Below are positions 41,561 to 43,726 of a stretch of DNA of 64,000 nt, piece by piece. The notes under the pieces are model-generated. The model worked only from the letters and a program-made list of their open reading frames with translations. It was not told the DNA's origin and did no database searches. Made by a program: the position numbers and the translations under genes. Numbering within the stretch: the first letter of the stretch is position 1; each line of letters starts with the position of its first letter. The stretch is from Escherichia coli (lineage in GTDB: Bacteria; Pseudomonadota; Gammaproteobacteria; Enterobacterales; Enterobacteriaceae). The stretch lies in NCBI RefSeq assembly GCF_002854065.1, contig NZ_CP024147.1. One strand, written 5' to 3'.

Positions 41561-41620
41561 ACTAACTCTCTCTTTATTAAGTCGGCGACGAGATACTAAC
41601 AAAGCATTATAGATGAGAAA

Positions 41621-41634
41621 TTGATATAGATCAT
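41621..41634. promoter_or_regulatory. putative FNR site in focA-pflB promoter region
   Basis: TTGATATAGATCAT, a near-consensus TTGAT-N4-ATCAA; the focA-pflB operon is known to be FNR-activated. Confidence 0.5.
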
Positions 41635-41695
41635 ATCTCGCCTGGCTTATAGGCCCGTAACTCGCATGGTTTTTATGCAAATACGGAGTAAATAT

Positions 41696-41709
41696 TTGAT
41701 TATCCAAAT
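41696..41709. promoter_or_regulatory. putative second FNR-like site in focA-pflB promoter region
   Basis: TTGATTATCCAAAT, a weaker half-site match, in AT-rich upstream DNA. Confidence 0.35.
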
Positions 41710-41965
41710 AAAAATAAATTTTAAAAATTAACAAATGAGTTGAATTTTTTCCGCATCCTCCGCTAAAACAGTTAATTAAAAGGGAGCACCAGGCGAATAA
41801 AGTAACAATATCGATCGTATTTATTAAATACAAATTACCGATATTTAACCTTATAATTACAATTATTTTATTAATGCAAATATATGTAAAGCGGGGCATT
41901 AAAAAAACGCCCCGTAATATAACTCAGACGAATCATTAAGCCTACATTGCGTAGGCTATTTGATT

Positions 41966-43726
41966 TTATTTTGCCCAGAATGCTGCTTTGGCGCGCTGCA
42001 GCTTTTCGTAGGCCTTCAACAGCGACTGATGTGCAGCAAACGCGTGCAGATCGCTATCTACTGGTTGCAAGCCATAAAACGCCGCTTCGCCGCTCATTGC
42101 CGCACTGGCGGCTTCCACGGCATCTGCGCCGTACATGCGAACAAACGCATTCAGATATTGCAGCGGCTGGCGATCTTCTTCCTGTGCCAGTAATAACAAC
42201 GTTTGCAGGCAGCGATAATAGTTGGCGCGTTCCGGGCTGAATACCGATGAGTTAAACTCCATCGTCCATTCGGTCCAGACCAGAGCCTGTTCCAGATCGC
42301 CACCAGCCAGCGCCAGCATGGCTTTTAATTCACCGATACGCAGGGTGTACCAACCGTTATCCGACCCGGTCGCCAGACCCAACAGCTCACGCACGCGGGT
42401 AAAGTCATCAAAACCTTCTTCATCCAGTTGCTCGATGAGGTTCAGGTAATCTTCTTTTTCCCACTCGCTGCCTGGTAGCGAAAGAATCGTTTCACGTAAA
42501 TGGCTGCCCATACTGTTATTCGCGAGCCACAGATCTTCAGCCGGATAAATATCGGACATGCCAGGCACGATAATACGGCAAGCATAAACGCCCAGATGCT
42601 CGTAATCGGCAATATAAACTTCTTTATCTTCTTTGTTGAAGATAGCCATCAGCGTGGCAAACTCTTCTTCCGTGGTGCCGGAGAAATTCCAGTCCACAAA
42701 CGGATAATCGGCATCCTGCTTGAACAGGTCCCAGGAGATTAAACCGCTGGAATCGATAAAGTGCGTTTCGAGGTTGGTATGTTCAGCGACTTCTTCATCA
42801 TCGAAGGTTGGCGGAGTAAACACATCCAAATCTTTCAGGCCACGACCTTGCAGCAGCTCGGTCACGGTACGTTCCAGTGCTACGCCAAAATCAGGATGCG
42901 CACCGAAAGAGGCAAAGCAGGTGCCGTTAGCAGGATTAAACAGTACCACGCAAATCACCGGATACTGGCCGCCAAGCGAACCGTCATAAGCGAAGATCGG
43001 GAAACCTTCCGCTTCCAGTGTTTCGATCGCTTCAACCACCGCTGGGTAACGCGCCAGCACGTCTGCCGGGATTTCCGGCAAGCTGATGCTTTCAGCAATA
43101 ATGCGGTTTTTCACGTAGCGTTCGAAAACTTCGGACAACCCCTGAACGCGTGCTTCGTTGCGGGTATTGCCAGCGGACATACCGTTAGAAACGTACAGGT
43201 TACCAATGATATTCATCGGAATATAAACGGTCTGATTGTCGGACTGGCGCGTAAACGGCAGACCGCAAATACCACGATCTTCGTTACCGGATTGTAGGTC
43301 AATCAGCATACTGCCGGTCAATTCATTCTCCGGATCGTAAAATGCGCGCAGACGGTCATCGAGCAGCCCTTCTGGCACATCGTCATTTTCGGTCAGTGGG
43401 AACCATTTTTCGTTGGGATAATGCACAAATGGACCGTTGGCGATGGTTTCGCCCAGCCAGAAATCAGCAAAAAAGTAGTTGGTTGAGAGACGCTCGAAAT
43501 ATTCACCGAGTGCAGAAGCCTGCGCCGCTTTCTTGGTTGCGCCTTTACCGTTGGTAAAACACAGTGCGCACTCTTTGTCGCGAATATGTACAGACCAGAC
43601 GTTAGGCACGGGATTCAGCCAGGAGGCCTCTTCAATCTGAAAGCCGAGGTCTGAAAGTTTTTGCTGGAAGCGAGCGATGGAATCTTCCAGAGCGGCATCT
43701 TTGCCGGGGATAAATGTTTGCGTCAT
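41966..43726 (-). CDS. ycaO: YcaO-domain protein (ribosomal protein S12 methylthiolation accessory factor)
   Basis: 586 aa from MTQTFIPGKDAALEDSIARFQQKLSDLGFQIEEASW... Confidence 0.88.
   Translation of the reverse strand: MTQTFIPGKDAALEDSIARFQQKLSDLGFQIEEASWLNPVPNVWSVHIRDKECALCFTNGKGATKKAAQASALGEYFERLSTNYFFADFWLGETIANGPFVHYPNEKWFPLTENDDVPEGLLDDRLRAFYDPENELTGSMLIDLQSGNEDRGICGLPFTRQSDNQTVYIPMNIIGNLYVSNGMSAGNTRNEARVQGLSEVFERYVKNRIIAESISLPEIPADVLARYPAVVEAIETLEAEGFPIFAYDGSLGGQYPVICVVLFNPANGTCFASFGAHPDFGVALERTVTELLQGRGLKDLDVFTPPTFDDEEVAEHTNLETHFIDSSGLISWDLFKQDADYPFVDWNFSGTTEEEFATLMAIFNKEDKEVYIADYEHLGVYACRIIVPGMSDIYPAEDLWLANNSMGSHLRETILSLPGSEWEKEDYLNLIEQLDEEGFDDFTRVRELLGLATGSDNGWYTLRIGELKAMLALAGGDLEQALVWTEWTMEFNSSVFSPERANYYRCLQTLLLLAQEEDRQPLQYLNAFVRMYGADAVEAASAAMSGEAAFYGLQPVDSDLHAFAAHQSLLKAYEKLQRAKAAFWAK

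Follow-up and report, generated by a model that had tools for sequence, protein, structure and literature searches.

The stretch of Escherichia coli DNA analysed here (64,000 nucleotides; 'the window') carries on its minus strand, between positions 41561 and 43726, the gene ycaO together with the spacer that separates it from focA, which encodes the formate channel. The ycaO coding sequence (41966–43726, minus strand; 586 codons plus stop, with the ATG at 43726–43724) is given by its open reading frame and has the same coordinates in the RefSeq annotation of a 99.98%-identical genome, and 5425 of the 5426 complete E. coli genomes contain the stretch. focA (40703–41560, minus strand; 285 residues) starts with a GTG at 41560–41558, as had been stated in an earlier reading of the interval from sequence alone (the sequence-only reading), and this GTG recurs in all 81 Enterobacterales loci with a readable start codon; the product aligns from end to end (1–285 of 285) with the FocA equivalog family NF008069. 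A longer frame of 398 residues (40703–41899) is not a gene, the focA frame being merely open upstream of the real GTG.

The spacer (41561–41965) is exactly 405 bp long, the length given in the sequence-only reading, and is AT-rich as described there (68.6% A+T, compared with 49% for the whole window). It differs from its K-12 counterpart at two of 405 bases (SNPs at 41789 and 41930), both outside the mapped sites. In 72 of the 73 Enterobacterales loci with enough sequence, ycaO immediately precedes focA on the same strand, the spacer measures 375–408 bp in 67 of these 72, and ycaO-focA synteny is seen across the Gammaproteobacteria (Watson et al. 2020, PMC7550191). An Rfam scan of positions 40000–45000 at E ≤ 1 yielded no RNA family. 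The window and strain CUWW06 show an IS1 difference.

Our own analysis covers identity, domain and residue conservation, synteny, and the scoring and conservation of sites. The enzymology, the occupancy by FNR and ArcA in vivo and the transcription starts are those published for a protein with one residue different; positions in U00096.2 are converted into window positions by subtraction of 912,129.

YcaO and the thioamide of ribosomal protein uL16

The ycaO product matches PF02624 over the full length of the domain (profile positions 1–325 of 325; 255 bits, cut-off 25.7), TIGR00702 with 576 bits (cut-off 75.7) and the NCBIfam equivalog NF040716 with 916 bits (cut-off 700), and it is identical at 585 of 586 residues to the protein in PDB entries 4Q84, 4Q85 and 4Q86. 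Its ATP/Mg-binding catalytic domain comprises residues 59–391 (PF02624; 42554–43552, minus strand), and Ser71, Glu75, Glu78, Arg79, Glu199, Glu202, Arg203 and Arg286 are all present and invariant across 50 Enterobacterales orthologues. We take Ser71, Glu75, Glu78, Arg79, Glu199, Arg203 and Arg286 (E. coli numbering) to be the ATP/Mg2+-ligating residues, as reportedly described by Dunbar et al. 2014. Glu202 is named as an ATP-site residue by Rice et al. (Biochemistry 2026, PMC13063428), who also describe the C-terminal TPR-like domain (residues 407–581; 41984–42508, minus strand; PF18381 YcaO_C, 220 bits) as serving dimerisation and possibly the binding of uL16. The protein is markedly acidic (pI 4.38; 92 Asp+Glu versus 42 Lys+Arg), and so are the 50 orthologues (pI 4.34–4.74); the Enterobacterales orthologues sampled are 72–99% identical and share a common synteny. 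An unusually low pI of about 4.4, complementary to the basic uL16, serves as a criterion for the group of the E. coli enzyme (PMC13063428). Judged by PF02624/TIGR00702, NF040716, pI and YcaO_C, all of them sequence criteria, the protein belongs to the YcaO superfamily and to its uL16-thioamidating stand-alone group.

The sequence-only reading had left the function of ycaO open, and it has since been assigned experimentally: E. coli YcaO thioamidates ribosomal protein uL16 at Met82 in an ATP-dependent manner (Rice et al. 2026, PMC13063428), a reaction that had been predicted earlier (Watson et al., eLife 2020, PMC7550191). According to the former study, (i) the thioamide is lost in a ΔycaO strain, (ii) uL16 is completely modified upon co-expression with YcaO, (iii) the reaction in vitro requires full-length uL16, Na2S, MgCl2 and ATP, the sulfide source being non-physiological, (iv) YcaO binds uL16 with a Kd of ∼10 nM, (v) mutants of the ATP site are impaired, and (vi) the orthologues of K. 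pneumoniae and P. aeruginosa catalyse the same reaction on their own uL16. The modified residue adjoins the peptidyl-transferase centre of the ribosome; rplP, the gene for uL16, lies outside the window.

In the mechanism proposed, the acidic stand-alone YcaO would bind folded uL16 through a broad electrostatic surface, a loop of uL16 would be inserted into the ATP/Mg2+ site, and the backbone amide of Met82 would be converted with a sulfide equivalent into the thioamide, the order of events being nucleophilic attack, ATP-dependent O-phosphorylation and elimination of phosphate. Neither a RiPP precursor nor an RRE/E1 partner, a dehydrogenase or TfuA would be involved. The YcaO encoded here would likewise thioamidate uL16, its single substituted residue presumably leaving it active.

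Because the E. coli enzyme has been shown to thioamidate uL16 Met82 (Rice et al. 2026), RefSeq's 'S12 methylthiotransferase accessory factor' is no longer an up-to-date name. The idea behind the name, which is used by NCBIfam as well, is that YcaO aids RimO in the methylthiolation of Asp88 of S12, and it can draw on the work of Strader et al. (2011), which, as far as it is summarised in PMC13063428, had YcaO co-purifying with tagged S12 and S12 methylthiolation decreasing from 99% to 84% in a ΔycaO strain. However, RimO can modify an S12 peptide in vitro by itself, the mark is abolished in a ΔrimO strain, and AlphaFold3 interface scores with YcaO are 0.31 for uS12 and 0.16 for RimO, both not confident, as against 0.8 for uL16 (PMC13063428). 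With direct catalysis on uL16 demonstrated, and with an effect of ΔycaO on S12 that may be indirect, we regard such an accessory role as very unlikely.

Membership in the YcaO superfamily might also invite the view that the gene encodes a cryptic RiPP enzyme, which would cyclodehydrate or thioamidate some small precursor peptide that is encoded in the vicinity and has escaped recognition. The protein does show similarity to the models for SagD-type TOMM enzymes (TIGR03604) and for McrA thioamidation (TIGR03266), but this is weak and below threshold, the scores being 42.8 bits (cut-off 219.25) and, far below, 41.4 bits (cut-off 365), respectively. The model for OsmC-YcaO fusions (TIGR03549) likewise stays below its cut-off (679 versus 900 bits), and its match, which begins only at profile position 148, lacks the OsmC part. 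The annotation of the 64-kb region of the 99.98%-identical genome shows no E1-like, dehydrogenase, TfuA or ThiS-like gene, and TfuA is not encoded by E. coli (PMC13063428). A scan of small ORFs, proposed as a check in the sequence-only reading, found no Cys/Ser/Thr-rich stretch in the intergenic ORFs on either side of ycaO (at best 3–4 residues in 10); small ORFs rich in S/T/C lie within ycaO, pflB, focA, ycaP and serC, all of them off-frame or antisense in these known genes. The ycaO-focA spacer is fully accounted for by the regulatory elements and the terminator described below, and YcaO is inactive on peptides of 11 or 21 residues, requiring folded uL16 (PMC13063428). The chance of a RiPP function is thus practically negligible, and the view taken from the sequence alone, of a stand-alone gene with neither partner genes nor a precursor-peptide ORF in its flanks and with nothing to indicate a biosynthetic cluster, is borne out. 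ycaO is here an ordinary stand-alone, non-RiPP housekeeping gene of E. coli, and as such already known.

The only unusual sequence detail of the interval, the rest of which is already known, escaped the sequence-only reading: codon 69 of ycaO (43520–43522, minus strand) is CAG (Gln), versus CTG (Leu) in K-12. The resulting substitution, L69Q, is the sole amino-acid difference of the protein from K-12 YcaO and PDB 4Q84, and it lies two residues before Ser71; by helical periodicity, residue 69 belongs to the hydrophobic side of the helix that bears Ser71, Glu75 and Glu78. All 49 other Enterobacterales species have Leu at this position, and only three of the 5426 complete E. coli genomes contain the exact 61-mer spanning codon 69 with Gln; the carriers of the allele are three environmental and clinical isolates. 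One may speculate, although we consider it unlikely, that in this lineage L69Q acts as a natural hypomorphic allele of the uL16 thioamide synthase and leaves the ribosomes with some or all of the Met82 thioamide missing; isolates carrying the allele would then constitute a natural experiment on the purpose of this modification. As a natural change at an otherwise invariant residue, L69Q represents a cheap lead on the role of the uL16 thioamide and on the sulfur donor.

Two transcription units and the spacer between them

ycaO has a promoter of its own (43752–43764, minus strand), with a -10 element TATTAT at 43764–43759 and a start at ∼43752 that leaves a 26-nt leader; the start is taken from Kim et al. 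(2012), whose supplementary table lists it at 955,881 in U00096.2, the upstream sequence given there being the same as here. At the other end of the gene, a first hairpin just past the stop codon (41939–41957, minus strand), seen in the RNA fold and, as a palindrome, also in a scan of the plus strand, is followed by the hairpin CGGGGCGUU-loop-AAUGCCCCG with a U-rich tail (41892–41914, minus strand), which folding and conservation identify as the intrinsic terminator of ycaO. The fold of 41968–41870 has a minimum free energy of -31 kcal/mol (z = -4.66), all 20 species compared retain the terminator stem, its inner pairs showing compensatory changes, and in most species a clean T-run lies 3' of the stem. 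With its own σ70 promoter and a conserved intrinsic terminator, ycaO would be monocistronic. Read from ycaO, the spacer would then contain, in this order, the terminator, an upstream σ70 promoter with an overlapping ArcA site, a bend site of IHF type, a single consensus FNR site and the focA GTG.

The upstream promoter of focA-pflB, TTTACA-17-AATAAT (41862–41890, minus strand), was found by a consensus scan with 10 of 12 matches and precedes the pflB ATG by ∼1.2 kb. The same two hexamers constitute an RNA polymerase holoenzyme SELEX site in the focA/ycaO spacer (Shimada et al. 2014), and an anaerobically enriched σ70 ChIP peak was reported at 954,032, corresponding to about 41903 in the window (Myers et al. 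2013). The promoter is probably the historical 'promoter 7' (P7) of the older literature. An alternative placement with an extended -10 element at 41853–41861 was dropped because TTTACA-17-AATAAT fits the σ70 ChIP peak better; the block in question is the core of the in vivo ArcA site. This site, a multi-direct-repeat element with the core ttgtaattataaggttaa (41820–41873, minus strand), is known from the ArcA ChIP data of Park et al. (2013), in the supplement of which the peak 'focA2' (953,962–953,967) is accompanied by a site at 953,949–954,002 with this sequence; the core is highly conserved across 71 Enterobacterales spacers.

Closer to focA, the core promoter (41587–41611, minus strand) shows a perfect -10 element TATAAT (41611–41606) and a start at 41597, which was reported at 953,726 with the upstream sequence ...TCTATAATGCTTTGTTA (Kim et al. 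2012). An FNR-dependent start is placed at ∼41587, about 10 nt further downstream, because of the -40.5 spacing given by Myers et al. (2013). In the alignment of spacers, the core promoter region is nearly invariant across species.

Two FNR-like sites had been proposed from the sequence, of which one is genuine. TTGATATAGATCAT (41621–41634), in class II position for focA promoter 6, has one mismatch to TTGAT-N4-ATCAA. Consensus matching alone is weak: 14-mers with at most one mismatch number 3 in the window, versus 2.7 expected, and the chance of such a match in a shuffled spacer is 0.046. We judge the site to be real because of its position, ChIP data and conservation. It is retained with at most two mismatches in 70 of 71 Enterobacterales spacers, it corresponds to an FNR PWM site at 953,750 (score 14.37; Myers et al. 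2013, Table S6), and the same authors report an FNR ChIP-seq peak at 953,741/953,746, a site position of -40.5 and direct activation of the operon by FNR. With a location near -41.5 of the mapped start and with occupancy in vivo, known from the literature for an identical sequence, this is a class II FNR-activated promoter.

The second proposed site, TTGATTATCCAAAT (41696–41709, plus strand), does not hold up as an FNR site. It consists of a TTGAT half-site only and has four mismatches in 10 specified positions, which is at chance level (27 spacer 14-mers have at most four mismatches, as against 19.1 ± 3.8 in shuffled spacers); it is missing from the genome-wide FNR PWM site list of Myers et al. 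(2013), and the spacer alignment reveals no conserved FNR match at its position in other species. Two FNR sites have been attributed to the focA-pflB operon, Table 1 of Myers et al. (2013) giving '2', and in the spacer no 14-mer besides 41621–41634 has two mismatches or fewer. Candidates with three mismatches at 41699, 41721, 41820 and 41871 are not conserved as FNR sites; the ones at 41820 and 41871 fall within the ArcA site or overlap with it.

What 41696–41709 does overlap is a match to the IHF consensus, AATCAAATATTTA (41689–41701, minus strand), which is preceded by a conserved A/T tract. The match is itself conserved in the spacer alignment, where the consensus AATCAAAAAGTTA also fits; the pattern WATCAANNNNTTR occurs 10 times in the window, versus 2.5 matches expected. 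Binding of IHF at this position was reportedly described by Sirko et al. (1993). Control of pfl by IHF is stated in PMC2636881, and we predict that 41689–41701 is an IHF-type element. A half-site TTGAT within an AT-rich spacer does not amount to an FNR site; here it would form part of an IHF-type element.

The layout and the genuine FNR site agree with the claim of the sequence-only reading that ycaO adjoins the FNR-controlled focA-pflB regulatory region. The 'standard pfl promoter' of which it speaks falls short of what the spacer holds, namely also the ycaO terminator, the upstream promoter and the in vivo ArcA site.

The synteny of ycaO and focA, with its narrow range of spacer lengths in Enterobacterales and its extension across the Gammaproteobacteria, could be taken to indicate that ycaO is functionally coupled to focA-pflB, and thus to anaerobic formate metabolism, the shared spacer and its FNR sites co-regulating both. 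However, the ycaO promoter is located at the gene's own 5' end, far from the spacer, a conserved terminator lies between the two units, and P. aeruginosa is not known to carry pflB. The uL16 of P. aeruginosa is modified by that organism's own YcaO, too (PMC13063428), and the thioamide occurs in ribosomes of aerobic cultures (Watson et al. 2020, PMC7550191). Moreover, the response to oxygen is opposite, with aerobic/anaerobic expression ratios of 3.78 for ycaO versus 0.145 for focA and 0.21 for pflB (Myers et al. 2013). There is, in our view, only a slight chance of such coupling, and we conclude, with a probability of about 0.93, that the interval comprises two independent, well-known units: a monocistronic ycaO for the uL16 thioamide enzyme and the control spacer of focA-pflB.

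Comparison with known systems

For readers of genomes, an acidic stand-alone ycaO beside focA is then to be taken as a uL16 thioamide synthase and not as an orphan RiPP enzyme. The closest reference is K-12 itself, the YcaO of which (UniProt P75838; PDB 4Q84/4Q85/4Q86) has the same length, domains, ATP-site residues, acidic pI (4.4) and promoter sequence, and the neighbours of which are those seen here, with focA-pflB-pflA downstream and ycaP divergent upstream; it differs in having Leu69, the Gln allele seen here being found in none of the 49 other species examined. The K-12 focA-pflB regulatory region, characterized by Sawers and co-workers with its FNR, ArcA and IHF control and multiple promoters, is identical but for the two SNPs, so that FNR site, ArcA site, transcription start and GTG map one-to-one and no difference of substance is apparent.

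The YcaO proteins of K. pneumoniae and P. aeruginosa (A6T6Z8 and Q9I2H8) belong to the same acidic stand-alone group and catalyse the same reaction, being orthologues and not the same protein. More distant is the methanogen YcaO that modifies the glycine of McrA (TIGR03266; MJ1094, PDB 6PEU; usually accompanied by TfuA), which shares with E. coli YcaO the ATP-dependent backbone thioamidation of a folded protein outside a RiPP context, as well as a recognisably related fold (E = 4.5e-4 over residues 175–306); the E. coli enzyme, however, has an additional C-terminal TPR-like domain, no TfuA and a different substrate. Finally, the TOMM/azoline cyclodehydratases (SagD/BalhD/McbD/LynD) resemble E. 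coli YcaO in their ATP-binding YcaO domain and in the mechanism by which they activate amides, whereas ycaO of E. coli comes without an E1-like/RRE partner, dehydrogenase or precursor, and its product is a thioamide rather than a heterocycle.

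The ycaO-focA locus and its surroundings

The feature formed by ycaO and the focA-pflB promoter region is already known, and the sequence-only reading described it correctly in all but the second of its two FNR sites. The ycaO gene (minus strand; ATG at 43726, stop at 41966-41968) encodes 586 residues and is separated from the GTG start of focA (41560-41558, minus strand) by a spacer of exactly 405 bp (41561-41965) with an A+T content of 68.6% vs 49% for the whole window; both the AT-rich interval and the GTG start had been proposed and are borne out. The order on the minus strand is pflA-pflB-focA-ycaO, followed on the plus strand by ycaP (divergent from ycaO), serC and aroA. 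A 2.5-kb query over the ycaO region is matched by 5425 of 5426 complete E. coli genomes, all annotated focA / ycaO / ycaP. When Enterobacterales loci were collected by a pattern search for the FocA N-terminus, one genome per species (83 DNA stretches), ycaO was found on the same strand immediately upstream of focA in 72 of the 73 loci having enough sequence, with a spacer of 375-408 bp in 67 of these 72. The spacers share a near-constant length and a kept block order, that is, terminator, ArcA core, A/T tract with an IHF-type element, FNR site and core promoter. A 398-residue ‘FocA’ ORF (40703-41899, minus strand) was rejected as spurious: upstream of the genuine GTG, the focA frame runs on without a stop for 113 codons, as far as an ATG at 41899, and this entry of a mechanical ORF list engulfs the entire focA promoter region.

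Across 63 kb the window is 99.98% identical to the annotated E. coli strain CUWW06, one IS1 difference aside. Mapping onto CUWW06 indicates that an IS1 (~3368-4136) splits the aquaporin gene aqpZ (~3025-4497), and the second IS1 of that strain, in ycaM, is absent from the window. A LysR-family regulator gene is represented only by a 111-bp remnant (37225-37335) lying between ycaM, which encodes an amino-acid permease, and pflA. K-12 presumably carries ycaN and ycaK here, and a deletion appears to have occurred at this position in the present lineage.

YcaO family, function and the L69Q allele

The annotation of CUWW06 over the 64 kb contains no E1-like, dehydrogenase, TfuA or ThiS-like gene, consistent with the earlier claim that ycaO lacks partner genes. 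The small-ORF scan which that reading had proposed yielded no Cys/Ser/Thr-rich, precursor-like ORF of 12-100 residues in either flanking intergenic region (maximum 3-4 such residues per 10-residue window); richer small ORFs were discarded, every one being off-frame or antisense within known genes. Since both scans came up empty, the outcome is the one anticipated, namely a housekeeping ycaO that stands alone next to the pfl promoter. The protein comprises a complete PF02624 domain (255 bits) and a C-terminal YcaO_C domain (PF18381, 220 bits), and scores 916 bits against the NCBIfam equivalog NF040716 (cut-off 700). It stays under the cut-offs of the models for SagD-type TOMM cyclodehydratases (42.8 vs 219), McrA thioamidation (41.4 vs 365) and OsmC-YcaO fusions (679 vs 900; the OsmC portion is absent). 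Its pI is 4.38 (4.34-4.74 for Enterobacterales orthologues), and 585 of 586 residues are identical to those of crystallised E. coli YcaO (PDB 4Q84/4Q85/4Q86). The residues which we take to form the ATP/Mg site (S71, E75, E78, E199, E202, R203 and R286) are all present and are invariant across 50 extracted Enterobacterales orthologues. E202 is named as an ATP-site residue in PMC13063428.

The view of YcaO function taken from the sequence alone is out of date. Watson et al. (eLife 2020, PMC7550191) described a thioamide in the backbone of the ribosomal protein uL16 at Met82, with YcaO as prime candidate, and Met82 thioamidation by YcaO has now been published by Rice et al. (Biochemistry 2026, PMC13063428): (i) the thioamide is missing from ΔycaO ribosomes, (ii) co-expression of YcaO, though not of ATP-site mutants, leads to complete uL16 modification, and (iii) purified YcaO with Na2S, MgCl2 and ATP modifies full-length uL16, but neither peptides of 11 or 21 residues nor digested uL16. 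In the same study, YcaO binds uL16 via a broad electrostatic surface with a Kd of ~10 nM, the K. pneumoniae and P. aeruginosa orthologues catalyse the same reaction, and TfuA is absent from E. coli. The name ‘S12 methylthiotransferase accessory factor’ is weak, because S12 modification falls by only 15 percentage points in ΔycaO, RimO is sufficient in vitro, and the interfaces of YcaO with uS12 and with RimO are not predicted with confidence (PMC13063428).

The one oddity at this locus is L69Q (43520-43522, minus strand; CAG vs CTG), the sole amino-acid difference from K-12. K-12, PDB 4Q84 and 49/49 other Enterobacterales species sampled all have Leu at residue 69, and just three of 5426 complete E. 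coli genomes (100416, GDSC2227PM and CUWW06) contain the exact 61-mer around the Gln codon. Helical periodicity suggests that residue 69 would lie on the helix face opposite S71, E75 and E78, alongside L73, F77 and L80. A mild defect could persist because ycaO is dispensable. That L69Q makes this lineage a natural hypomorph for uL16 thioamidation is the most far-reaching reading, and we consider it unlikely.

Regulatory elements of the spacer

Conservation of the spacer in the Enterobacterales alignment is blockwise. The first of the two proposed FNR-like sites, TTGATATAGATCAT (41621-41634), deviates from the FNR consensus at one position. By consensus matching alone it is not significant (three such sites observed in the window vs 2.7 expected; chance in a shuffled spacer 0.046), but independent lines of evidence support it strongly. 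Its exact sequence appears in Myers et al. (2013) among the PWM sites, at 953,750 of K-12 U00096.2 (window 41621), with FNR ChIP-seq peaks at 953,741 and 953,746; these authors place the site at -40.5 and class focA-pflB as directly FNR-activated. A site with at most two mismatches is retained in this column in 70 of 71 distinct aligned spacers, and no other column of that alignment shows such retention. Hence the first site stands. The second, TTGATTATCCAAAT (41696-41709), does not: it has four mismatches and only a left half-site, equally good or better 14-mers number 27 in the spacer vs 19.1 +/- 3.8 in shuffles, and the PWM list of Myers et al. (2013) lacks it. Elsewhere in the window, three further FNR-consensus matches (1621-1634, 4638-4651 and 29338-29351) fall within regions already known to bind FNR; Table S6 of Myers et al. 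contains the exact sequences TTGATTTAGCGCAA (hcp) and TTGATTTAGGGCAA (aqpZ/ybjD), and TTGATACCGAACAA lies inside dmsA, ~0.6 kb from its start, the FNR ChIP target being the dmsA promoter region (Myers et al. 2013). A one-mismatch match within ycaD (35376-35389) is probably due to chance.

On the focA strand, the second site shares bases with AATCAAATATTTA (41701-41689), which matches the IHF consensus WATCAANNNNTTR perfectly; this consensus is matched 10 times in the window vs 2.5 expected. A conserved A/T tract precedes the element, which is itself conserved across other species; the consensus AATCAAAAAGTTA fits there too. The IHF footprint presumably lies between the two upstream promoters. 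Activation of pfl by IHF is documented (PMC2636881). At 41689-41710, E. coli has TTGGATAATCAA and most other Enterobacterales have TTGATAATCAA in the aligned column, in which the FNR half-sites TTGAT and ATCAA are spaced by 1 nt instead of 4 and overlap the IHF-consensus match.

The ycaO 3' UTR is hairpin-forming (-31 kcal/mol, z = -4.66). Its GGGGC/GCCCC hairpin (41892-41914) is an intrinsic terminator, since it is kept in 20/20 species, its inner pairs change in a compensatory manner and a clean T-run usually follows it. A consensus scan detected a sigma-70 promoter, TTTACA-17-AATAAT (41890-41862, minus strand), ~1.2 kb upstream of the pflB ATG, a distance that fits what we take to be ‘promoter 7’ of pfl, with which we tentatively identify it. 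Identical hexamers form an RNAP-holoenzyme SELEX site within the spacer (Shimada et al. 2014), and an anaerobically enriched sigma-70 ChIP peak maps to ~41903 (Myers et al. 2013). An ArcA site (41820-41873), whose core is the strongly conserved block TTGTAATTATAAGGTTAA, coincides with an in vivo ArcA ChIP peak (Park et al. 2013, supplement). The perfect focA -10 hexamer TATAAT (41611-41606, minus strand) precedes a mapped transcription start at 41597 (Kim et al. 2012); the FNR-dependent focA start lies ~10 nt further downstream, followed by the leader and the GTG, and the stretch from the FNR site through TATAAT and leader to the GTG is nearly invariant between species. No Rfam family matches 40000-45000. 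IS insertions upstream of focA, which raise anaerobic focA expression, were repeatedly selected during mouse-gut adaptation of E. coli (Lourenco et al. 2016, PMC5094792); the window carries none in this regulatory region.

ycaO as a separate transcription unit

Taken together, the interpretation drawn from the sequence alone is supported in part: it correctly recognised the housekeeping ycaO, was outdated as to function and erred on one site. The gene has its own start at ~43752 (Kim et al. 2012), with a TATTAT -10 and divergent from the ycaP start, and it ends at the conserved terminator hairpin. Its aerobic/anaerobic ratio of 3.78 is opposite in direction to those of focA (0.145) and pflB (0.21; Myers et al., Table S12). 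Own start, terminator and opposite oxygen response thus assign the FNR site to focA-pflB rather than ycaO. ycaO and focA are old, conserved neighbours, which is most simply viewed as linkage without shared function, as was likewise judged by Watson et al. (PMC7550191).
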